NCBI RefSeq assembly: GCF_044324785.1
Contig: NZ_CP172127.1
Direction: 5' to 3' (one strand)
Origin: Escherichia coli
Lineage (GTDB): Bacteria > Pseudomonadota > Gammaproteobacteria > Enterobacterales > Enterobacteriaceae
DNA length: 64,000 nt
The position numbers and the translations under genes were made by a program. Shown piece by piece: positions 47,973 to 60,078 of this stretch. Each line of letters begins with the position of its first letter. The first letter of the stretch is position 1. The notes under the pieces were generated by a model, which worked only from the letters and a program-made list of their open reading frames with translations, was not told the origin of the DNA and searched no databases.

Positions 47973-49910
47973 TCAGTAACGACGTCCCCATTCCGTGGCG
48001 CTCATCAATGTCGGTTTATCCCCCATGAAATAGCGGTAGTAAGCGTCATAAGCCAGCACGTTCTTCACATAACCGCGCGTCTCGGAGAACGGAATACTCT
48101 CGACAAATGCCACTGCGTCGATACGCCCGGCGCTGTTGCCAAGCCAGGTTCGCACCCGCCCTGGTCCGGCGTTATAAGCTGCTGAGGAGAAAATACGGTT
48201 ATTACCAAACTGCTGATAAACATATTGCAGGTAACTGGTGCCAATGTTGATGTTCGTTTCCGGATCCAGCAATTGTCCTGGGCTGCTATAACCAGGAATA
48301 GAGAACATCTTCACCGTATGGGTCGCCGTGCCCGGCATAATCTGCATCAGGCCGCTGGCCCCTACCGGTGATTTCACTTTCGGATTCCAGGCACTCTCCT
48401 GACGGGCAATCGCCATCGCATAGCTTTGCGGGATCTCCTTCCCACTGGTGTAACGTTTGAAAAGATCGTTGTAGGCCAGCGGGAATCTCTCTTCCAGATG
48501 ATCCCAAAGCTTCCCGGCGATCGTTGCCTGAACGCTAAGATCCCACCATTGGTTATTGAAAGCATACCGAGCCAGTTGCGCCTGCTCTGTTTTTGACTTG
48601 CTCTTCACCAGATTGGCCCACTCGCTACGCGCGGTATTATCGAGATTCCAGTACATCAACTCGCGCACGCGCGCCATCTCCGGCCCCTGAGTCAGGGCGC
48701 TGTCAACATTCTGCGGCGCTTTATCAATCTTCAGCTCATACTCTTCACCGATGCGTTGTGCTGCAACCATCGGGTAGAAACCACGCTGTTGCATGAGTTG
48801 ATGCAAAATCTCTTTTGCTTCAGCTTCACGTCCGCGTTCCAGCAGTAAATCCGCCTGCCAGTAACGCCATTCATCTTTCTCTTTCGCCTCCATCGGCAAA
48901 CGCGCCAGCCAGGTATTCAGGCCGCGACGATCGCCGGTGCCAAGCGCCATTCGCACACGGCGTTCAATAAGCGAAGTAGATTGCGAACGCATAATGGCGT
49001 CATCACGCCATTTCGCCTGTTCGTCGGTGACATCGTTGCCCATCAAACGCCAGGCGACGATATCGCGCAGCTCCTGAATCTGATCTTCATTAAGCTGCTG
49101 CGCCTGGGCAAGCGACGGGATCATCAGCCGTGCATTTTCAGCATCCTGCCGCGCCACACTGGCAAACGCCACCGCCGCCATTTGACGGGTAAAATCGGTC
49201 GCTCCGGTTGTACGCGCGAAGGTCAGTACCGTATTAGGATTGTTCGCCAATGAAATAATTGCCGAGGCGATAGTCTGGTAATCGGCAGGCATCTGCCCTG
49301 CCAGCACTGTTACGAGGCCAGTGTTACCCGCTTTCATCGCCAGACGGATACGCTCTAAATACGCCAGCGGATCTTGTTTACCTGACGCACGCCAGACGCT
49401 AAATAACTTGTCACAGGCGTTAGGCTGGCTCTTGCCGGTTAGCCACAGCTCTTTCGCCCCTTGCCAGGCTTCTTCACTCTGCCCGGTGTTCCATTTTGCA
49501 TAGTAGTAATTACATTGCGCTTCGGTAGTTCCGGGCTTTTCCGGGCTAAAGGCTAACAAGCCACGCCAGTCTTCACGCCGCGCCAGTTCATTGACGAAAC
49601 GAGATTGCAGCGTGCGAGCGGGAGGAAGCGTGGGGTTAGCGCGAACAAAGTTAGTGACCGTCACCGCCGGTTGATTCATCAGATCATCGGTGATCTGGCG
49701 GTATTCCAGGTAGGGATAAAGCGGATAATCCTTCAGTCCAGGCATCATTTGTTCGACCACATCCATCTGTCGATTATCCCAGGCCTGCTTGATTTGCGCG
49801 TAACGGCTACGCTGCTCATCCAGTGAGTCGGCTCGCGCCACGCTGCTGACCGTCAGCAGACAGACACCGGCAGCCAACAGCCGCCAGGTAACTTGTTTGG
49901 CTTTTTCCAC
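47973..49910 (-). CDS. slt: Soluble lytic murein transglycosylase
   Basis: ORF 47973..49940; probable GTG start giving (M)EKAKQVTWRLLAAGVCLLTVSSVARA (645 aa). Confidence 0.95.
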   Translation of the reverse strand: MEKAKQVTWRLLAAGVCLLTVSSVARADSLDEQRSRYAQIKQAWDNRQMDVVEQMMPGLKDYPLYPYLEYRQITDDLMNQPAVTVTNFVRANPTLPPARTLQSRFVNELARREDWRGLLAFSPEKPGTTEAQCNYYYAKWNTGQSEEAWQGAKELWLTGKSQPNACDKLFSVWRASGKQDPLAYLERIRLAMKAGNTGLVTVLAGQMPADYQTIASAIISLANNPNTVLTFARTTGATDFTRQMAAVAFASVARQDAENARLMIPSLAQAQQLNEDQIQELRDIVAWRLMGNDVTDEQAKWRDDAIMRSQSTSLIERRVRMALGTGDRRGLNTWLARLPMEAKEKDEWRYWQADLLLERGREAEAKEILHQLMQQRGFYPMVAAQRIGEEYELKIDKAPQNVDSALTQGPEMARVRELMYWNLDNTARSEWANLVKSKSKTEQAQLARYAFNNQWWDLSVQATIAGKLWDHLEERFPLAYNDLFKRYTSGKEIPQSYAMAIARQESAWNPKVKSPVGASGLMQIMPGTATHTVKMFSIPGYSSPGQLLDPETNINIGTSYLQYVYQQFGNNRIFSSAAYNAGPGRVRTWLGNSAGRIDAVAFVESIPFSETRGYVKNVLAYDAYYRYFMGDKPTLMSATEWGRRY

Positions 49911-50120
49911 AAGCGCATCCTCTAAGTGTAAATACATCAATGCAGCGTCATGCCGCGTAATAGATTTATGCTAACCAGTCATTGCCGTTTACGCCACGTT
50001 ACGGACACTTTTTTACTTTTATCGGGAGGGTGATCGACCGGCTGGGATTAGATAAGGAAACAGGCTACACTTCGCCTTTGAAAACTCATCATCACGATAA
50101 ACATAGAGGCGAAGTCCAAC

Positions 50121-51788
50121 GTGGCTCAATTCGTTTATACCATGCATCGTGTCGGCAAAGTTGTTCCGCCGAAACGTCATATTTTGAAAAACATCTCTCT
50201 GAGTTTCTTCCCTGGGGCAAAAATTGGTGTCCTGGGTCTGAACGGCGCGGGTAAGTCCACCCTGCTGCGCATTATGGCGGGCATTGATAAAGACATCGAA
50301 GGCGAAGCGCGTCCGCAACCGGATATCAAGATTGGTTATCTGCCGCAGGAACCGCAGCTGAACCCGGAACACACCGTGCGTGAGTCCATTGAAGAAGCGG
50401 TTTCTGAAGTGGTTAACGCCCTGAAACGCCTGGATGAAGTGTATGCGCTGTACGCCGATCCGGATGCCGATTTTGACAAGCTGGCCGCTGAACAAGGCCG
50501 TCTGGAAGAGATCATTCAGGCTCACGACGGTCACAACCTGAACGTTCAGCTGGAGCGTGCGGCGGATGCGCTGCGTCTGCCGGACTGGGACGCGAAAATC
50601 GCTAACCTCTCCGGTGGTGAGCGTCGTCGCGTGGCGTTGTGCCGCCTGCTGCTGGAAAAACCAGACATGCTGCTGCTCGACGAACCGACCAACCACCTGG
50701 ATGCCGAATCCGTGGCCTGGTTGGAACGCTTCCTGCACGACTTCGAAGGCACCGTGGTGGCGATTACCCACGACCGTTACTTCCTTGATAACGTTGCAGG
50801 CTGGATCCTCGAACTGGACCGCGGTGAAGGTATTCCGTGGGAAGGCAACTACTCCTCCTGGCTGGAGCAGAAAGATCAACGTCTGGCGCAGGAAGCTTCA
50901 CAAGAAGCTGCGCGTCGTAAGTCGATTGAGAAAGAGCTGGAGTGGGTACGTCAGGGAACTAAAGGCCGTCAGTCGAAAGGTAAAGCACGTCTGGCGCGTT
51001 TTGAAGAGCTGAACAGCACCGAATATCAGAAACGTAACGAAACCAACGAACTGTTTATTCCACCAGGACCGCGTCTTGGCGATAAAGTGCTGGAAGTCAA
51101 CAACCTGCGTAAATCCTATGGCGATCGTCTGCTGATTGATGACCTGAGCTTCTCGATCCCGAAAGGAGCGATCGTCGGGATCATCGGTCCGAACGGTGCG
51201 GGTAAATCGACCCTGTTCCGTATGATCTCTGGTCAGGAACAGCCGGACAGCGGCACCATCACTTTGGGTGAAACGGTGAAACTGGCATCGGTTGATCAGT
51301 TCCGTGACTCAATGGATAACAGCAAAACCGTTTGGGAAGAAGTTTCCGGCGGGCTGGATATCATGAAGATCGGCAACACCGAGATGCCAAGCCGTGCCTA
51401 CGTTGGCCGCTTTAACTTTAAAGGGGTTGATCAGGGTAAACGCGTTGGCGAACTCTCCGGCGGTGAGCGCGGTCGTCTGCATCTGGCGAAGCTGCTGCAG
51501 GTTGGCGGCAACATGCTGCTGCTCGACGAACCAACCAACGACCTGGATATCGAAACCCTGCGCGCGCTGGAAAACGCCCTGCTGGAGTTCCCGGGCTGCG
51601 CGATGGTTATCTCGCACGACCGTTGGTTCCTCGACCGTATCGCCACGCACATTCTGGATTACCAGGATGAAGGTAAAGTTGAGTTCTTCGAAGGTAACTT
51701 TACCGAGTACGAAGAGTACAAGAAACGCACGCTGGGCGCAGACGCGCTGGAGCCGAAGCGTATCAAGTACAAGCGTATTGCGAAGTAA
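50121..51788 (+). CDS. ettA: Energy-dependent translational throttle protein EttA (ABC-F ATPase)
   Basis: 555-aa ORF MAQFVYTMHRVGKVVPPKRHILKNISLSFFPGAKIGVLGLNGAGKSTLLRIMAGIDKD; two ABC domains; intact. Confidence 0.97.
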   Translation: MAQFVYTMHRVGKVVPPKRHILKNISLSFFPGAKIGVLGLNGAGKSTLLRIMAGIDKDIEGEARPQPDIKIGYLPQEPQLNPEHTVRESIEEAVSEVVNALKRLDEVYALYADPDADFDKLAAEQGRLEEIIQAHDGHNLNVQLERAADALRLPDWDAKIANLSGGERRRVALCRLLLEKPDMLLLDEPTNHLDAESVAWLERFLHDFEGTVVAITHDRYFLDNVAGWILELDRGEGIPWEGNYSSWLEQKDQRLAQEASQEAARRKSIEKELEWVRQGTKGRQSKGKARLARFEELNSTEYQKRNETNELFIPPGPRLGDKVLEVNNLRKSYGDRLLIDDLSFSIPKGAIVGIIGPNGAGKSTLFRMISGQEQPDSGTITLGETVKLASVDQFRDSMDNSKTVWEEVSGGLDIMKIGNTEMPSRAYVGRFNFKGVDQGKRVGELSGGERGRLHLAKLLQVGGNMLLLDEPTNDLDIETLRALENALLEFPGCAMVISHDRWFLDRIATHILDYQDEGKVEFFEGNFTEYEEYKKRTLGADALEPKRIKYKRIAK

Positions 51789-51876
51789 TGCGTAAAATGC
51801 CGGATGCGGCGCGCCAGCATCGCATCCGGTATTAGTTAAATGATTAGTCCCCGGAAAAAGGCAGAATTTTCTTTAA
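51015..51876. repeat. Direct repeat copy A (ettA 3' end + REP + antitoxin-gene 3' remnant)
   Basis: About 860 bp that recur, with scattered substitutions and one 13-bp indel, at 55917..56776. Confidence 0.8.
51798..51830. repeat. REP element downstream of ettA
   Basis: GCCGGATGCGGCGCGCCAGCATCGCATCCGG palindrome; duplicated at about 56683..56715. Confidence 0.5.
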
Positions 51877-51943
51877 GCGTATTAGCTCAGATGCGGACTG
51901 ACACCTCAAATCAAGCGGGAACTCATGGTTCCCGCTTAACGTT

Positions 51944-52831
51944 TTATTCACCGCGCAGGATCTGGCGGAAATGGGAAACCAGCGGACGTTGGTTGGCTTT
52001 ATGCCAGGCTGCCCATAATTGCGTTGAATAATTCATCCACGGCAATTCACGTAATACCACCCCTTCCGGCGCATTATGACGCAGACTATGTTGAATTAAG
52101 GCCAGACCTAATCCCGCAGCGACCAGACCTAATGCCGTGAGGGGTTCACCCGCTTCCAGGCGAATATCAGGATTAAACCCGGCGTTAACACAGGCGGCGA
52201 CAAAATGATCGCGAGAATGCGCATCGTCGTTATGAATCACCGCAATCCACTGCTCATCGCCAAGTTGTGACGCGACAAGGTTTTCCTCCTGCGCCAGAGG
52301 ATGATTTTGCGGTAAGGCCAACAACATTCGATCATCCAGAACCTGAATATATTCCAGATCCTGCTCGCTGTCGGCGGGCGGCGTATCGACCAGAGAAAAA
52401 TCGAGACTGCGCTGGCGCAGGCCTTCAATCTGGGTAGCCGGTGGTTGGCTGTAAAGTGCGATATGCACATTCGGACGCGATACACGTAACGTACGTAGCG
52501 CCGTAGAAAGCACACCGGAATGCATGGCGTTTTCGATATAGCCAATACACAAGCCACCATCTTCCCCCCGTCCCAGGCGTTTGCCTAACGACTCCAGGCG
52601 GTTGGCGTGTGTCAGCAACGAACGTGTTTCGGCAAGGAATGTCTGTCCATCAGCGGTCAGGCGAATGCGCTGCTGATTACGCTCAAACAGCGTCAGCCCC
52701 AGCCGTTCTTCCAGTTGTGCAATCTGGCGGCTCAGCGGTGATTGCGAGATATGTAATCGCTCGGCTGCGCGTCCCACGTGCTCTTCTTCTGCGACCACCA
52801 CGAAGTACTTCAGTTGGCGTAAATCAATCAT
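51944..52831 (-). CDS. LysR-family transcriptional regulator
   Basis: ORF 51944..52924; canonical LysR N-terminus from internal Met MIDLRQLKYFVVVAEEEHVGRAAERLHISQSPLSRQIAQLEERLG (295 aa); divergent from the adjacent oxidoreductase genes. Confidence 0.85.
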   Translation of the reverse strand: MIDLRQLKYFVVVAEEEHVGRAAERLHISQSPLSRQIAQLEERLGLTLFERNQQRIRLTADGQTFLAETRSLLTHANRLESLGKRLGRGEDGGLCIGYIENAMHSGVLSTALRTLRVSRPNVHIALYSQPPATQIEGLRQRSLDFSLVDTPPADSEQDLEYIQVLDDRMLLALPQNHPLAQEENLVASQLGDEQWIAVIHNDDAHSRDHFVAACVNAGFNPDIRLEAGEPLTALGLVAAGLGLALIQHSLRHNAPEGVVLRELPWMNYSTQLWAAWHKANQRPLVSHFRQILRGE

Positions 52832-52896
52832 GTTAGACCTCAAAGGACTTAAGTCAGACGAATTATGTCCTATCAAGTCACAACCTCGCAAGGTAT

Positions 52897-52912
52897 TGTG
52901 ATCCACGTCACA
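52897..52912. promoter_or_regulatory. Perfect TGTGA-N6-TCACA palindrome in the LysR/AKR divergent promoter region
   Basis: TGTGATCCACGTCACA in the 133-bp intergenic region; fits the CRP half-site consensus and also a T-N11-A LysR-type box. Confidence 0.3.
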
Positions 52913-52964
52913 GGGCGATAGCAAAAAAACGCCCTAACCCAAACCGAATAATTGAGGACATCTT

Positions 52965-53975
52965 ATGAGCATCAAAAATTTACTTCCCGGCAAAATTGGC
53001 TTAGGTGGCGCACCACTCGGCAACATGTTCCGTGCCATTCCGGAAGACGAGGCCCACGCCACCGTGAGCGAAGCCTGGAACCTGGGCGTGCGTTACTTTG
53101 ATACCGCGCCGCTGTACGGCTCTGGCCTTTCTGAAATCCGCATGGGTGAAGCGCTGTCTCAGTATCCACGCGATGAATACGTTCTGAGCAGCAAAGTCGG
53201 TCGCATCATGCTGGACGAAATGGAAGATCCGGCAAAACGTGATTTCGGTGAAAAAGGTGGCCTGTTCGAACACGGCCTGAAAAACAAAATTCTGAATGAC
53301 TACTCTGCTGACGCCACGCTGCGCTCGATTGAAGACAGCCTGAAACGCCTGAAAACAGACCGTCTGGATATTGTCTGGATCCATGACCCGGCGCAGGACT
53401 TCTACGGTGACAGCTGGCTGGAACAGTTCAACATTGCCCGTACCGGTGCGTTTCGTGCGCTGACGCGTTTGCGTGACGAAGGTGTGATTAAAGCCTGGGG
53501 ACTGGGTGTGAATCGCGTCGAACCTTGCGAACTGACGCTGGCGCTGGACGAACCGAAGCCGGATGCGTTCCTGCTGGCGGGGCGTTATTCCCTGCTGGAT
53601 CACGAACGTGCGCTGCAACGCCTGATGCCAGAAGCACTGGAACAGAACGTGGATATTGTTGTGGGCGGTCCGTACAGCTCTGGCGTACTGGCAGGCGGCG
53701 AGCACTTTGAATATCAGAAAGCTTCTGCGGCCATCCAGCAGAAAGTGGCGCAAATTAACACCATTGCCACACGTTTCAATGTGAACGTTAAAGCAGCTGC
53801 GCTGCAGTTCGCACTGGCAAACCCGGCCGTTGCGGCGGTTATTCCTGGCTCCAGCCGTCCTGGCCGTATGGCAGAAGATCTGGCTGCACTGAATGCGCCT
53901 GTTCCGGCTGAATTCTGGGCAGAAATGCGCCGTCAAAATCTGGTTGCGGAAAACGCTCCGCTGCCGACCCGTTAA
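52965..53975 (+). CDS. Aldo/keto reductase family oxidoreductase
   Basis: 336 aa, MSIKNLLPGKIGLGGAPLGNMF...YFDTAPLYGSG; AKR fold motifs. Confidence 0.85.
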   Translation: MSIKNLLPGKIGLGGAPLGNMFRAIPEDEAHATVSEAWNLGVRYFDTAPLYGSGLSEIRMGEALSQYPRDEYVLSSKVGRIMLDEMEDPAKRDFGEKGGLFEHGLKNKILNDYSADATLRSIEDSLKRLKTDRLDIVWIHDPAQDFYGDSWLEQFNIARTGAFRALTRLRDEGVIKAWGLGVNRVEPCELTLALDEPKPDAFLLAGRYSLLDHERALQRLMPEALEQNVDIVVGGPYSSGVLAGGEHFEYQKASAAIQQKVAQINTIATRFNVNVKAAALQFALANPAVAAVIPGSSRPGRMAEDLAALNAPVPAEFWAEMRRQNLVAENAPLPTR

Positions 53976-53994
53976 TCAACCTGGTGAGAAAACG

Positions 53995-54792
53995 ATGAAA
54001 CTGGATCTGACAGGTAAAGTCGCGGTAGTCAGCGGCTCAACCTCCGGCATTGGGCAGGGTATCGCCGCCGGACTGGCAAAAGCAGGCGCAACGGTGGTTG
54101 TCGTCGGCCGTAAACAGCGCGGCGTTGATGACGCCATGGCTGCGATTGCGGCACAAACTCCCACGGCGTCACTGCGTGGCGTGGTGGCCGACCTCAGCAC
54201 CGAAGACGGCGTGGCTGCGCTGATCGCTGCAGTCCCAACGGCTGATGTGCTGGTCAATAATCTGGGCATTTTTAACGATAAAGATTTCTTTAGCGTTCCG
54301 GATGATGAGTGGATGCACTTCTATAACGTCAACGTCCTCTCCGGCGTTCGTCTGGCGCGTCACTATGCGCCAGGCATGACGGAACAGGGCTGGGGGCGGA
54401 TTATCTTTGTCTCGTCCGAATCCGGCGTGGCAATCCCTGGCGACATGATCAACTACGGCGTCACCAAAGCCGCGAATCTGGCGGTTTCTCATGGTCTGGC
54501 GAAACGACTGGCGGGGACCGGTGTGACCGTCAACGCCATTCTGCCAGGGCCAACCTTTACCGATGGCCTGAAAGAGATGCTGGCGGATGCCGCTGCACAA
54601 TCGGGACGCAGTGCGCGTGAACAGGCCGATGAGTTTGTTAAAACCTCGCGTCCGAGCTCCATCATCCAGCGTGCGGCGGATGTGGAAGAAGTGGCGAATC
54701 TGGCGGTTTATCTCGCGTCACCGCTTTCCTCGGCAACCACAGGGGCAGCCCTGCGCGTCGATGGTGGCGTCGTCGACACCCTGACTATGTAA
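53995..54792 (+). CDS. Short-chain dehydrogenase/reductase (SDR)
   Basis: ORF 53893..54792; start MKLDLTGKVAVVSGSTSGIGQGIA (TGxxxGxG Rossmann motif) preceded by GGTGAG; 265 aa. Confidence 0.85.
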   Translation: MKLDLTGKVAVVSGSTSGIGQGIAAGLAKAGATVVVVGRKQRGVDDAMAAIAAQTPTASLRGVVADLSTEDGVAALIAAVPTADVLVNNLGIFNDKDFFSVPDDEWMHFYNVNVLSGVRLARHYAPGMTEQGWGRIIFVSSESGVAIPGDMINYGVTKAANLAVSHGLAKRLAGTGVTVNAILPGPTFTDGLKEMLADAAAQSGRSAREQADEFVKTSRPSSIIQRAADVEEVANLAVYLASPLSSATTGAALRVDGGVVDTLTM

Positions 54793-54817
54793 CCCTATAA
54801 ATTAAGAGAAAATTATC

Positions 54818-55234
54818 ATGGCTAAAACAACTGTATCGATCGAAATTCCGGCTTCTGCCGACGCCGTATGGCAATTGATGGGCGGCTTTGATGCGCTGCC
54901 AGACTGGCTGCCGTTCATCCCGAAAAGCGTGGTGACAGAAGGCGGTCGCGTTCGTTCGCTGACAACCTCTGACGGCGGCACTGTGGTTGAACGTCTGGAA
55001 GCGTTTGATAACCGTCAACGCAGTTATACCTATTCCATTATTCAAGCACCGTTCCCAGTGGTGGATTACCTCTCCACCATTACCGTTCATGAAACCGCCG
55101 ACAGCCAGGTTTCCCGTGTGGAATGGTTCGGTGAATTCACCCCGGTGAATGTGACGAACGAAGAGGCCGAAGCGCTGTTTACCGGCATCTATCGGGATGG
55201 TCTCAAGGCGCTGAAGGACAACTTTGTTGCCTGA
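54818..55234 (+). CDS. SRPBCC-superfamily (polyketide cyclase / Bet v1-like) protein
   Basis: 138 aa; family assignment from overall sequence character, moderate certainty. Confidence 0.6.
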   Translation: MAKTTVSIEIPASADAVWQLMGGFDALPDWLPFIPKSVVTEGGRVRSLTTSDGGTVVERLEAFDNRQRSYTYSIIQAPFPVVDYLSTITVHETADSQVSRVEWFGEFTPVNVTNEEAEALFTGIYRDGLKALKDNFVA

Positions 55235-55391
55235 TGCAATCGACAGGCGTCGGAACGTCCGGCGTCTGATTATTAACAAAAGCAGAATAGTCTATTGTCA
55301 TTTGTATCATTTATGTTATCAGGCAGCAGGCGTATTCTCTTCCCATCGCGTTAATAAACGCCAAACAATTAAGACACTCTGGAATATAAAC

Positions 55392-55604
55392 ATGAAAACG
55401 ATCATCGCAATTTTTACGGCTTCTCTTTTCTCTGTCGCGGCGTTTAACGCATCGGCGCAAAGCGTGACAGCAACCGGTACAACACTGGATTCTGCGGAAG
55501 CAGTTATTGCGCAGAAAGCGAAAGAGATGAACGCCTCTGAATACAAAATCACCAGCGCTCGCATGGGCAATACCGTCACCATGAGTGCCGAACTGTACAA
55601 ATAA
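55392..55604 (+). CDS. DUF1471 (YdgH/BhsA/McbA-like) small secreted stress protein
   Basis: 70-aa frame MKTIIAIFTASLFSVAAFNASAQSV...ASEYKITSARMGNTVTMSAELYK; signal peptide and family-typical C-terminus. Confidence 0.7.
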   Translation: MKTIIAIFTASLFSVAAFNASAQSVTATGTTLDSAEAVIAQKAKEMNASEYKITSARMGNTVTMSAELYK

Positions 55605-55628
55605 CCGCGCAAGGGACCCATTACGTAA

Positions 55629-55838
55629 TTTGCTAAATATGCGCTGAATGCGTTGCCATTAAAAAACCGTATTGTAATGCCACCGATGACACGTTCCCGT
55701 GCGGGTGACGTTGCGACTGACATGATGGCGGACTATTACGCGCAGCGCGCTAGTGCAGGACTTATCATCAGCGAAGGTACGCAAATCAGCAGAAGCGCTG
55801 CGCATAATTTTCCACGGCCCGCTGATTTACTCCGGTAA
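55629..55838 (+). pseudogene. Remnant of an Old-Yellow-Enzyme (NemA-like) NADH:flavin oxidoreductase gene
   Basis: Frame encodes PLKNRIVMPPMTRSR...MMADYYAQRASAGLIISEGTQIS, resembling an OYE N-terminus, then loses similarity and stops; no in-frame ATG. Confidence 0.55.
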
Positions 55839-55916
55839 ATAGACCAAAGCGCGCGCAGAAGCGGACTGTCAGATTTGATTGCATTCTGGCTACGCAACTG
55901 GTCGGTTGGAGTATGA

Positions 55917-56677
55917 AGCACCGAATATCAGAAACGTAACGAAACCAACGAACTGTTTATTCCACCTGGACCGTGTCTGGGCGACAAAGTGCTGGAAGTC
56001 AGCAACCTGCGTAAATCCTATGGCGATCGTCTGCTGATTGACTCCCTGAGCTTCTCGATCCCGAAAGGAGCGATCGTCGGGATCATCGGTCCGAACGGTA
56101 CGGGCAAATCGACGTTGTTCCGTATGATCTCTGGTCAGGAACAGCCGGACAGCGGCACCATCACTCTGGGTGAAACGGTGAAACTGGCATCGGTTGATCA
56201 GTTCCGTGACTCAATGGATAACCGCAAAGCCGTTTGGGAAGAAGTTTCCGGCGGGCTGGATATCATGAAGATCGGCAACACCGAGATGCCAAGCCGCGCC
56301 TACGTTGGCCGCTTTAACTTTAAGGTAAACGCGTTGGTGAACTTTCCGGTGGTGAGCGCGGTCGTCTGCATCTGGCGAAGCTGCTGCAGGTTGGCGGCAA
56401 CATGCTGCTGCTCGACGAACCAACTAACGACCTGAATATCGAAACCCTGCGCGCGCTGGAAAACGCCCTACTGGAGTTCCCGGGCTGTGCGATGGTTATC
56501 TCGCACGACCGTTGGTTCCTCGACCGTATCGCCACGCACATCCTGGACTACCAGGATGAAGGTAAAGTTGAGTTCTTCGAAGGTAACTTTACCGAGTACG
56601 AAGAGTACAAAAAACGCACGCTGGGCGCAGACGCGCTGGAGCCGAAGCGTATCAAGTACAAGCGTATTGCGAAGTAA
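55917..56677 (+). pseudogene. Truncated, frameshifted second copy of the ettA 3' half
   Basis: Matches ettA from about 51015 onward with scattered substitutions and a 13-bp deletion near 56320 that breaks the frame; no 5' half. Confidence 0.85.
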
Positions 56678-56776
56678 TGCGTAAAATGCCGGGTGCGGCG
56701 CGCCAGCATCGCATCCGGTATTAGTTAAATGATTAATGGGAGGCAAGTTCCCGGAAAAAGGCAGGATTTTCTTTAA
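55917..56776. repeat. Direct repeat copy B (ettA' + REP + 3' end of intact antitoxin gene)
   Basis: Counterpart of 51015..51876. Confidence 0.8.
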
Positions 56777-57017
56777 TTGTGGCAAGTACTTTTGCAGCCA
56801 ATCCCGTAGGATTTCTTCGCTTCGATTCCCAGCTTTTAATGGTATCCACACTGGTTCCCAGAGCTTTTGCCATCTCACTTTGAGAAACGTTGAGTTGCTC
56901 ACGAATAGCTTTAACATCCGCAATTTCGTAGCGGGTCACCCGTGCAGGTTCTTTTAAACCTTGTTTAATCTCGACAGCCTCTTCCAGAGAGGTTTTCAAC
57001 TCATCAAAAAAACTCAT
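56733..57017 (-). CDS. HTH (XRE-like) antitoxin of a type II toxin-antitoxin pair
   Basis: 94 aa; C-terminal helix-turn-helix (LNVSQSEMAKALGTSVDTIKSWE); start 1 bp after the toxin stop. Confidence 0.7.
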   Translation of the reverse strand: MSFFDELKTSLEEAVEIKQGLKEPARVTRYEIADVKAIREQLNVSQSEMAKALGTSVDTIKSWESKRRNPTGLAAKVLATIKENPAFFRELASH

Positions 57018-57018
57018 T

Positions 57019-57351
57019 TTATACCTCGCCTTTGAGCAGTTTCGTCAACTTCTTTAGTTGAGCTTTTTCCGTATCTGTCAGACTATCTTTGGCATTTTTC
57101 GGATAGGCCATAATCAAATAAATAATCTCTTCCGTCGCCAGAAAGTAAATTATTCTGACACTGCCACTTTTTCCCTGTGAACCCGCAGCCATTCGGACTT
57201 TACGCAATCCACCAGTCTGCTGAATGAGATCACCTTTATCGGGAGTTCCGATGAGTTCTTTTTGTAATTCCTTTAATTCATCATCGGTTGCAATCTGCTT
57301 GATCTGACGCGTAAACATTGGCGTCTCTATAAATATTATCGCCTTGCCCAT
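57019..57351 (-). CDS. RelE/ParE-superfamily (HigB-like) toxin, putative
   Basis: ORF 57019..57429; likely start MGKAIIFIETPMF preceded by GGGAGG (about 110 aa); toxin-first gene order. Confidence 0.6.
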   Translation of the reverse strand: MGKAIIFIETPMFTRQIKQIATDDELKELQKELIGTPDKGDLIQQTGGLRKVRMAAGSQGKSGSVRIIYFLATEEIIYLIMAYPKNAKDSLTDTEKAQLKKLTKLLKGEV

Positions 57352-57366
57352 CCCCCCTCCCTGGCA

Positions 57367-57399
57367 GGTACATTGTACACCGAAATGGAGTACTAAGTA
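57367..57399. promoter_or_regulatory. Paired GTAC-containing palindromes upstream of the toxin gene (candidate operator)
   Basis: GTACATTGTAC and GTACTAAGTAC about 20 bp apart, 16-48 bp upstream of the proposed toxin start. Confidence 0.3.
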
Positions 57400-57442
57400 C
57401 ACTTTTGAATTAGTAATCCCACTCAACATCTTATAAAGATGA

Positions 57443-58675
57443 TTATCCCTGCTCCCCCATCATCTCCCGCACCAGCTCCACACAGCGCAGGAAACGGCTG
57501 TCGTAATCGTCCTCTTCAACCCGCACAAATTCGATATTGTTCTCTTCCAGCATCTCTACCAGCAAGTTCTGGAACTCTTTGCGATCCACCGAACTACCGA
57601 GGCTGCGTAAACCATCCGCCACCCACGGGGTGTTGTTCTCCAGCAAGATAACCAGATCAAAACGGTATTCATCGATCAGCGCCTGCACGAACGGATGCTC
57701 CCGCCCTTCGTACTTTTTGCAGAACGCCTGGGTAGTGACAAAATCAGTGTCGATAAACGCCACTTTATTGGCATATTTCACTGCAAAATCAATGTATTGA
57801 GCGTGTCCCAGCGCGATTTTATCGTAGTCGGAATACTGCAATGCGATCTCATCACCGCCAAGGTGTGAAAAGACATAATCGCGACCATATTCCCATGCAC
57901 TGGTAGTGTTGAAGATATTAGCAAGTTTGTTTACCAGGGTGGATTTACCGCTCGACTCGCCGCCAAGGATCGCCACGGTACGCACAAAGAACGGCTTCAC
58001 TTCGGTGGGAATATATTCCCAGTAGCGGAACGGGTTTTCGCGGATCTGCGCACCGCTGATACTCATAAAGGTACGCTTCGGATCGACCAGCACCGTCTCG
58101 ATCCCCAGATGTTCCATATACTGTGGCGCATCGGCTTCTTCCGAGGTGTAGATCAGGTCCGGCTGGATCCCCTTTTCAGCCATAAACTTTTTGATGCCGT
58201 TGCTCCACACATCCCAGCCGTGCGGATATGGCTCCATGCCCTCTTCGTTGAAAGCATGAATACGGATATTTTTCTGATATTTAAAGGTTTGCAATAACCA
58301 GCGCAGACGATCCGGCACGGTGGGCTGCTGCGACATGGCGCTGTCTTCAAACAACGCGCGGTCGCGGGTATCGTCAAAACCCATAATGATATGCAGCTCG
58401 TCAACCTGGCTACAGGCGCGCTGGATAAGGTAGATATGTCCGGTATGTAGCGGGTAGAACTTACCGAATACGACACCAATGGTTTTCTTCTGTCGGGGAA
58501 ATTCAAGCCCCAAAAAACGGTGCAACGCCTCCAGTTTTTGCGCGCTGGGGCTTTTAATTTTGGCATTCAGTAACTGGCTTAAATACCCTTTGGTCATACC
58601 GCTGGCATCAGCTACCTGCTGTAGCGTGCAGCCCTGTTGCTTGATGGCAGTTTTCAGGTAATCAAATGACGACAT
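57443..58675 (-). CDS. nadR: Trifunctional NAD biosynthesis/regulator protein NadR
   Basis: ORF 57443..58696; NadR from MSSFDYLKTAIKQQGCTLQQVADASGMTKGYLSQLL (410 aa). Confidence 0.95.
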   Translation of the reverse strand: MSSFDYLKTAIKQQGCTLQQVADASGMTKGYLSQLLNAKIKSPSAQKLEALHRFLGLEFPRQKKTIGVVFGKFYPLHTGHIYLIQRACSQVDELHIIMGFDDTRDRALFEDSAMSQQPTVPDRLRWLLQTFKYQKNIRIHAFNEEGMEPYPHGWDVWSNGIKKFMAEKGIQPDLIYTSEEADAPQYMEHLGIETVLVDPKRTFMSISGAQIRENPFRYWEYIPTEVKPFFVRTVAILGGESSGKSTLVNKLANIFNTTSAWEYGRDYVFSHLGGDEIALQYSDYDKIALGHAQYIDFAVKYANKVAFIDTDFVTTQAFCKKYEGREHPFVQALIDEYRFDLVILLENNTPWVADGLRSLGSSVDRKEFQNLLVEMLEENNIEFVRVEEDDYDSRFLRCVELVREMMGEQG

Positions 58676-58695
58676 ATCTCCCTCCGTATCTCTCA

Positions 58696-60078
58696 TTATA
58701 AGTCGTCGAACACGCTAAGCGCGTCGGAGAGTTTTTTAACGCCAAAAATCTGCATCCCTTCCGGCGCTTTTTTCGGCACGTTAGCCGCCGGAACAATCGC
58801 CCGGCGAAAACCGTGTTTCGCCGCTTCAGAGATTCGTTCCTGACCGCTGGGCACCGGGCGGATCTCCCCTGCCAGCCCGACTTCACCAAACACCACCAGA
58901 TCCTGTGGCAGCGGTCTGTCGCGCAGGCTGGAAACCATCGCCAGCAGTAACGCTAAGTCGGCGCTGGTTTCGGTTACCTTCACGCCGCCGACCACGTTCA
59001 CAAACACATCCTGATCGGCCATTTGCAGACCACCGTGACGGTGCAAGACAGCCAGCAGGATTGCCAGACGGTTTTGTTCCAGCCCCACTGCCACGCGGCG
59101 CGGATTCGCCATCATCGAGTGATCGACCAGCGCCTGAATCTCCACCAGCAACGGACGCGTTCCTTCCCACACCACCATCACTGAGCTACCGGAGGTCACT
59201 TCATCACCGCGGCTTAAAAAGATGGCGGAAGGGTTGCTGACTTCACGCAGCCCCTGTTCGGTCATCGCGAAGACGCCCAGCTCATTCACCGCGCCGAAGC
59301 GGTTTTTATGGCTGCGTAAGGTGCGAAAACGGGAGTCGGCATCGCCATCCAGAAGCACCGAACAGTCAATACAGTGTTCCAGCACTTTAGGGCCAGCCAG
59401 CGAACCATCTTTGGTTACGTGCCCAACCATGACAATCGCCACGCCGCGCGTTTTGGCGAAGCGCGTCAGATAAGCCGCCGTTTCACGCACCTGCGCCACG
59501 CTGCCAGGCGATGATTGTACATCCGCCATATGCATCACCTGAATGGAGTCAATTACCATCAGCTTCGGTTGCTCTTCTTCGGCAATCAGGCAGATTTGCT
59601 CGATGCTGGTTTCCGACAACATATTGAGATTGTCAGTCGGCAGGCCAAGGCGATGAGCGCGCATTGCCACCTGTTGCAGCGACTCTTCGCCGGTGACATA
59701 CAGCGTTTTCATCTGCTGCGCCAGTTTGCACAGCGTTTGCAGCAACAGCGTGGATTTCCCCGCACCTGGGTTACCGCCAATCAGAATGGCGCTTCCCGGC
59801 ACCACCCCGCCGCCTAATACGCGGTCGAACTCTTTAAATCCGGTGGAAAAACGCGGCAGCTCTTCAAGGCTGATGTCGGAAAGTTTCTGGACTTTTGCCA
59901 CCCCGGCGCTACCGGCATAGCCACTGAGACGCTCGTTACGCGCCACCGTTGGTGACGCGGCAAGACGCACCTCGGTGATGGTGTTCCAGGCATGACAGGC
60001 ACTGCACTGTCCCTGCCAGCGCGGATAATCGGCCCCGCATTCATTACAAACAAAGGCGCGTTTTGGAGCTTTTGCCAC
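58696..60078 (-). CDS. radA: DNA repair protein RadA (Sms)
   Basis: ORF 58696..60126; probable GTG start giving (M)AKAPKRAFVCNECGADYPRWQGQCSAC; Walker A GNPGAGKST. Confidence 0.95.
   Translation of the reverse strand: MAKAPKRAFVCNECGADYPRWQGQCSACHAWNTITEVRLAASPTVARNERLSGYAGSAGVAKVQKLSDISLEELPRFSTGFKEFDRVLGGGVVPGSAILIGGNPGAGKSTLLLQTLCKLAQQMKTLYVTGEESLQQVAMRAHRLGLPTDNLNMLSETSIEQICLIAEEEQPKLMVIDSIQVMHMADVQSSPGSVAQVRETAAYLTRFAKTRGVAIVMVGHVTKDGSLAGPKVLEHCIDCSVLLDGDADSRFRTLRSHKNRFGAVNELGVFAMTEQGLREVSNPSAIFLSRGDEVTSGSSVMVVWEGTRPLLVEIQALVDHSMMANPRRVAVGLEQNRLAILLAVLHRHGGLQMADQDVFVNVVGGVKVTETSADLALLLAMVSSLRDRPLPQDLVVFGEVGLAGEIRPVPSGQERISEAAKHGFRRAIVPAANVPKKAPEGMQIFGVKKLSDALSVFDDL

Follow-up and report, generated by a model that had tools for sequence, protein, structure and literature searches.

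A pair of small genes lies between a partial copy of ettA and nadR in the 64,000-nt stretch of Escherichia coli DNA analyzed here (the window), at one edge of a 4-kb island of cargo genes. The locus raises two questions: whether the two genes constitute a toxin-antitoxin (TA) module and of what type, and how an intact pair came to sit beside the cargo. The original prediction, made from the sequence alone, described a RelE/ParE-like open reading frame followed 1 nt later by a helix-turn-helix (HTH) antitoxin, with the toxin first. Comparisons with hidden Markov models, solved structures, and folds all agree with this description, and the pair is very probably a chromosomal, functional-looking type II TA operon of the Vibrio cholerae HigBA2 type, in which a PF06296 'RelE' toxin is paired with a NadS/YiaG-like antitoxin. 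Its elements, in order of transcription, are as follows.

57390–57402, minus strand: distal candidate operator GTGTAC-TTA-GTAC, overlapping a weak −35-like TGTACT
57368–57380, minus strand: proximal candidate operator GTGTAC-AAT-GTAC, holding a −10-like TACAAT (57372–57377)
57356–57360, minus strand: Shine-Dalgarno sequence GGAGG, 4 nt 5′ of the toxin ATG, as read from the sequence
57019–57351, minus strand: toxin gene, a HigB-2/PF06296-type RelE-superfamily mRNA endonuclease by homology (110 aa; RefSeq WP_000513551.1)
56733–57017, minus strand: antitoxin gene nadS, encoding an HTH protein of 94 aa

The toxin gene comes first and the two genes share a strand, with a single nucleotide (57018) between the toxin stop codon and the nadS ATG. 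The toxin start is placed at the ATG at 57351, where the RefSeq annotation and the homologues agree on a 110-aa protein, and this protein is 100% identical to that of the annotated gene of strain 06-00048. The longest mechanical open reading frame extends to an ATG at 57429 and would encode 136 aa. Because the additional 26 in-frame codons (57352–57429) overlie the Shine-Dalgarno sequence and both candidate operator sites, which carry a conserved motif, the extension is most likely untranslated.

Searches of both proteins against TA families confirm the assignment in each case. The toxin matches PF06296 at E = 5.9e-10 over residues 13–106, with a weak additional match to Gp49 (PF05973), and aligns with V. 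cholerae HigB-2 chains of the PDB at E = 7.5e-17 over residues 6–102. In the PDB alignment toxin residues R53, R66, Y83, and K85 correspond to VcHigB2 R51, R64, Y82, and K84, which are required in that enzyme, the alanine versions being 170- to 3000-fold less active (Hadzi et al., PMC5416850); the four E. coli residues are invariant in a six-sequence alignment of homologues from different genera. The AF2 model of the toxin has the strand and helix order of VcHigB2, a RelE-like (BECR) fold, and a Foldseek comparison against the PDB places VcHigB2 on top (TM 0.79–0.85, rmsd 1.9–3.6 Å; entries 5JAA, 5JA8, 5JA9, and 8A0X). Judged by sequence and modeled fold, the toxin is a HigB-2/PF06296 member of the RelE superfamily. 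The earlier comparison to HigB/HigA is thus correct as to the toxin-first order and is more precisely one to HigB-2/HigA-2: the canonical HigB families PF05015 and PF09907 are absent from the Pfam scan of the toxin, in which matches were listed to E = 10. The ParE gyrase-poison family PF05016 is likewise absent from that scan, and the RNase residues are present.

The antitoxin matches the NCBIfam NadS model NF041265 over residues 1–94 of 94 at 182.6 bits (E = 1.2e-54), where the curated cut-off is 60 bits. Its Pfam HTH_3 domain spans residues 35–79, it aligns with VcHigA-2 of the PDB at E = 2.2e-6 over residues 33–91, and Foldseek superposes it on the C-terminal domain of VcHigA2 (5J9I) with TM 0.77–0.84 and rmsd 1.0–1.5 Å. 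Sequence and predicted structure both indicate that the antitoxin is a full-length NadS-family protein related to V. cholerae HigA-2. The toxin and NadS were also modeled together in AF2, joined by a flexible linker, with a paired alignment of only 6 homologues. The best of the five resulting models has a pLDDT of 82.4 and a pTM of 0.73, the other four scoring lower. In the fused pair a helix (residues 3–18) and a strand (residues 26–32) of NadS fall in blocks of mean pLDDT >90, from a six-sequence alignment that is shallow, and the strand is followed by the five helices of the HTH domain. The N-terminus of VcHigA2 takes a helix-then-strand form when bound to its toxin (PMC5416850). No sequence similarity was detected between the N-terminal segments of NadS and VcHigA2, the alignment of the two proteins beginning at residue 33. 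Given the shallow paired alignment, the interface by which NadS would neutralize the toxin is one that we infer.

By analogy with the V. cholerae system, the toxin would enter the ribosomal A site and cleave translating mRNA by means of R53, R66, Y83, and K85, and the N-terminal segment of NadS, ∼32 residues long, would fold onto the toxin as helix and strand and neutralize it. The C-terminal HTH domains of a NadS dimer would repress the operon by binding the two TGTAC-N3-GTAC sites, which overlap the promoter, and loss of a labile antitoxin would set the toxin free. Toxicity, neutralization, DNA binding, and the physiological role of the pair are properties that we infer from the same analogy. 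A search of the literature found no functional study of NadS or of the E. coli pair, and the original prediction was right to be cautious in assigning it no specific role.

The closest characterized system is V. cholerae HigB-2/HigA-2 (VCA0468/0469; PDB 5JAA, 5JA8, 8A0X), which shares with the E. coli pair the toxin-first order, the RelE-like fold, and the four active-site residues, its toxin being ∼35–40% identical to the E. coli toxin. HigA-2 resembles NadS in its C-terminal XRE HTH dimer domain and may also do so in its N-terminal neutralizing segment, which for NadS is a prediction; the TGTAC half-site of the HigA-2 operator recurs in the candidate operator of NadS. The V. cholerae module resides in the superintegron, whereas the E. 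coli pair is chromosomal and lies between core genes. Bicistronic relE-yiaG modules have been described as a class (Gerdes 2025, PMC11980606), and they resemble the E. coli pair in having a PF06296 toxin encoded ahead of a YiaG/HigA-2-type antitoxin. NadS scores 47.7 bits against NCBIfam PRK10072, below the cut-off; PRK10072 is presumably YiaG, judging from the size and name of the protein. The toxins of relE-yiaG modules are described as having extended disordered N-termini (PMC11980606), whereas the possible 26-aa extension of the E. coli toxin is most likely untranslated; some of the reported extensions of PF06296 toxins may be start-codon miscalls. In the portion of the supplementary tables of Gerdes 2025 (PMC11980606) that was searched, the exact protein sequence of the toxin of this pair was not found.

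The HigB/HigA pairs of Proteus vulgaris Rts1 and of E. coli K-12 (YgjN/YgjM) also have the toxin gene first, a RelE-superfamily mRNase, and an HTH antitoxin, but Rts1 HigB belongs to PF05015 and K-12 HigB to PF09907 (PMC11980606), and the PF06296 toxin matches neither; toxins of the VcHigB2 type are structurally nearer to RelE than to Rts1 HigB (PMC5416850). MqsR/MqsA is a further toxin-first system, and the C-terminal domain of NadS resembles the MqsA C-terminal HTH (PF15731, E = 6e-4; TIGR03830, 38 bits; Foldseek match 3FMY), although these matches fall below the family cut-offs, the zinc-binding CxxC N-terminal domain of MqsA is absent from NadS, and the toxin lies outside the MqsR family. 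Equating the ∼51%-identical toxins of Acinetobacter plasmids with the characterized A. baumannii HigBA (PMC5906591) was considered and dropped on account of differing gene lengths: the A. baumannii genes are 357 and 303 bp and of Gp49 type (PMC5906591), and the matching genes on plasmid CP014652, cited in the same paper, and on pTCM-2 are 321 and 273 bp.

The pair is a routine HigB-2/HigA-2 (PF06296 plus NadS) member, and hundreds of E. coli genomes already have it in their annotation. Both proteins are named in RefSeq, and the structures and mechanism of the family are known from V. cholerae, so that the pair alone matters little. What is added here is small, and consists of a conserved candidate operator and a history of loss, splitting, and regain at the ettA-nadR locus.

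The gap between nadR and the toxin gene is 91 nt and contains both TGTAC-N3-GTAC sites, 22 nt apart, at about −23 to −52 relative to the toxin start codon. The 64-kb window contains two matches to the motif TGTACNNNGTAC, where 0.24 would be expected by chance, and both lie upstream of the toxin gene. One or two copies of TGTAC-N3-GTAC(A/C) are found 30–56 nt 5′ of homologous toxin starts in six other contexts, namely in Hafnia, Leclercia, Kosakonia, and Sodalis, on a Shewanella IncP plasmid, and on an E. coli Col plasmid, where the flanks are otherwise unrelated. The recurrence of the motif upstream of homologues in these six other genera and plasmids suggests that the two sites are probably the operator of NadS. 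The footprinted operator of VcHigA2, TGTACGC-N5-GCGTACA, overlaps a −10 element (PMC11006873). It is a single site, as against the two short sites of the E. coli pair, and its GTAC cores are separated by N9 rather than N3, the TGTAC half-site being common to both. In addition, of the four VcHigA2 residues that contact bases, three are replaced in NadS (R68→D58, E71→K61, and N72→S62). Owing to these differences in spacing and in base-contacting residues, details of the V. cholerae operator cannot be transferred to NadS. The conserved TGTAC-N3-GTAC motif nevertheless offers a directly testable operator candidate for the NadS family. A consensus scan called no sigma-70 promoter on the toxin strand upstream of the toxin gene, and a terminator scan called none in the gap after nadR; given the weak −35 element, read-through from nadR may be a partial source of transcription of the pair. 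An Rfam scan of 56500–57600 gave no match.

To place the pair within the species, the locus was surveyed in 5426 complete E. coli genomes, the pair being counted as present where 80% or more of the segment spanning both genes was found. By this measure 672 genomes carry the pair, some nadS sequence is found in 4986, and the 4-kb cargo in 482. The original prediction had asked whether the pair occupies ettA-nadR in strains that lack the cargo. It does: strain NU14 has the order ettA-nadS-toxin-nadR, with a NadS identical to that of the window and a toxin that differs only at V110I. What is left in K-12 is the final 29 nt of the toxin gene along with nadS codons 1–38, fused to a REP sequence; the remainder of the toxin gene and the promoter are deleted. 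The K-12 'nadS' pseudogene, which lies 34 nt after nadR, thus encodes NadS residues 1–37 and a REP-derived tail; these residues correspond to the part that neutralizes the toxin in VcHigA2, and the remnant is reported to be expressed (PIRT-seq, PMC12350097). In strains PRO_A-1551 and N3 the start codon of the nadS remnant is lost or the remnant is frame-shifted. These comparisons indicate that ettA-nadR is an old home of the pair in E. coli and that most lineages keep only a remnant of it, so that the ettA-nadR intergenic region, K-12 'nadS' included, can be explained as a decay series of a TA pair.

Upstream of the pair, the window contains the cargo and its junctions.

51846–51876, minus strand: nadS 3′-end remnant, 31 nt, at the left edge of the cargo, 29 of 31 positions identical to 56746–56776
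51877–55916, no single strand assigned: cargo within nadS, comprising genes for a LysR regulator, an aldo/keto reductase, an SDR, an SRPBCC protein, a DUF1471 protein, and a truncated alkene reductase
55917–56677, plus strand: ettA′ pseudogene, 761 nt from the 3′ end of ettA that bear a 13-nt deletion and together with 56678–56776 make up the right repeat copy

The left and right copies of the direct repeat (51015–51876 and 55917–56776) are identical at 820 of 873 aligned positions, with indels of 13 and 11 nt. Alignment of the two copies bears out two details of the original prediction, namely that the 3′ end of nadS is part of the repeat, its last 44 nt being contained in the right copy, and that a decayed nadS C-terminus lies at the other junction, this being the 31-nt remnant. 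An 11-nt deletion in the remnant took the nadS stop codon and the last codons before it. Genomes that bear the cargo typically have the same remnant, in the order ettA, 31-nt nadS 3′ remnant, cargo, nadS 5′ fragment, and nadR. As read from these alignments, the cargo is inserted into nadS, where it replaced 116 nt of the gene. The alkene reductase gene that closes the cargo on the right (OYE family; 55677–55916) is cut to ∼39 N-terminal codons, which implies that the island is a fragment of a larger region.

The cargo abuts a broken nadS, with the toxin gene absent, in at least 439 of the 482 cargo-bearing genomes, so the island persists without an intact pair. The proposal that the TA module is tied to the rearrangement holds, nadS being itself the site of cargo insertion, with the refinement that the island does not depend on the module. 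The arrangement of the window is, by comparison, very rare: apart from the window itself, the junction of cargo and ettA′ is found in 1 of the 5426 complete genomes, that of strain 06-00048, which has the same junction and 100% identical TA genes in flanks that are ∼1.4% different. The backbone of the window is almost identical to that of strain N3, with no mismatches over 48500–50500 and 57750–59000. The N3 locus nevertheless has the cargo in a broken nadS, as most cargo-bearing genomes do, and 15 of 107 positions in the N3 nadS fragment are different from nadS of the window. Most likely, given these patterns of identity, a ∼1.5-kb ettA′-nadS-toxin segment, donated by a lineage whose pair was intact, recombined into a locus of the cargo type. 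The comparison of the window with N3 reveals two further patches of divergence, 25 mismatches in 50750–51750 and 16 in 53750–55250, with none in the neighboring kilobases; the former spans the left repeat copy, where several bases are unique to the functional ettA of the window. This pattern suggests further recombination or gene-conversion tracts.

Alternatively, cargo, ettA′, and intact pair could together be the ancestral product of the insertion, from which the broken form was derived by deletions. The window and the broken forms do share the same left junction and, within 2 nt, the same right cargo end, and the 862-nt duplication could have been born in the insertion event itself. This ancestry is nevertheless unlikely, and was judged less likely than re-import, because the breakpoints of the toxin deletion are identical in cargo-free K-12 and in typical cargo genomes, because the N3 flanks match the window over long stretches and yet its nadS fragment differs as noted above, and because the junction of cargo and ettA′ is so rare beside the broken form. 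The microhomology shared at the right cargo end is only 2 nt, and every scenario needs a breakpoint exactly there.

The recombination favored above should be distinguished from the further claim that the module and the ettA piece were re-imported into a decayed, cargo-split locus in a manner that implies positive selection for regain, which is distinctly improbable. If such a re-import did occur, a possible benefit would be phage defense or anti-addiction against the homologous pair of small Col-type plasmids, the toxin of which shows 79% identity, and the K-12-type remnant with NadS residues 1–37 might likewise act as an anti-addiction peptide. The locus provides a clean natural example of the loss of a TA cassette, its splitting by an insertion, and its apparent regain.

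A different role has also been considered for the pair: it might protect against phage by abortive infection, or be a regulatory pair derived from a prophage, with an infecting phage depleting or sequestering NadS and so freeing the RNase. Both proteins match phage families of unknown function in PHROGs (phrog_5869, E = 7.7e-29; phrog_2104, E = 7.2e-22), the toxin has its weak Gp49 match, and RelE/ParE toxins have been treated as defense toxins (PMC11980606). The neighborhood, however, is made up of ettA, metabolic cargo, and nadR, without phage genes, and the defense-system models of PADLOC-DB 2.0 yielded only generic HTH matches and weak CARF matches to the toxin (E > 1e-3) that amount to noise. 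This role is very doubtful; the anti-phage reading fits the same molecular mechanism and is thus a rival to the HigBA2-type assignment on role only. That the pair is instead an inert relic, with intact reading frames and an attenuated toxin or silent operon on the way to K-12-like decay, is scarcely credible despite the predominance of remnants in the population counts, the orphan nadS genes of Leclercia and Pectobacterium, and the failure to detect a consensus promoter upstream of the toxin, since neither reading frame is truncated, the catalytic residues and Shine-Dalgarno sequence are intact, the proteins are within 0–1 residue of those of NU14, the candidate operator motif is intact in two copies, and dN/dS is ≤0.1 across genera.

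In these comparisons between genera dN is 0.07–0.28 and dS is saturated, the ratio given above applying to both genes wherever it could be computed; the pair is under strong purifying selection. NadS homologues are 85–91% identical across Enterobacterales. The pair is intact at differing chromosomal sites in Hafnia and Leclercia and frame-shifted or truncated at further sites in Kosakonia and Sodalis. The 1-nt gap between the toxin gene and nadS recurs in Hafnia, in Leclercia, and on the Col plasmid, and the two genes overlap on the Shewanella plasmid, on the Acinetobacter plasmid, and in Kosakonia. Homologues of the toxin are found on 889 plasmids, and in 3 of 3 plasmids sampled an annotated nadS follows the toxin gene. 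Hafnia, Leclercia, Kosakonia, Sodalis, and Pectobacterium use other sites, with no adjacency to nadR, which makes the association with this gene a feature of Escherichia alone. A source for the name NadS was not found in the literature, and given this specificity the name seems to be positional.

Orphan antitoxin genes occur in two of these genera. In Leclercia, one chromosomal site (3900–4285 of the locus) carries toxin and nadS in one strain and nadS alone in another, and the latter retains a single TGTAC-N3-GTAC site directly upstream. As read from the sequences, the strain with nadS alone is a case of toxin loss that left a self-regulated orphan antitoxin. In Pectobacterium brasiliense an orphan nadS, 87% identical (4001–4285 of the locus), lies between cas3 and cse1 of a type I-E CRISPR-Cas system; no toxin gene is present upstream in the region examined (3945–4846), where cas3 ends 55 nt before nadS, and the same arrangement is found in one further locus.

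Within E. coli, the site downstream of lplA is another variable TA-like locus nearby. Strain N3 has a full-length yjjJ, encoding a HipA-family toxin, 3′ of lplA (13448–14779 of its locus), and strains 06-00048 (15322–15585) and PRO_A-1551 (12627–12890) have only a small HTH gene at the position of N3 yjjJ.
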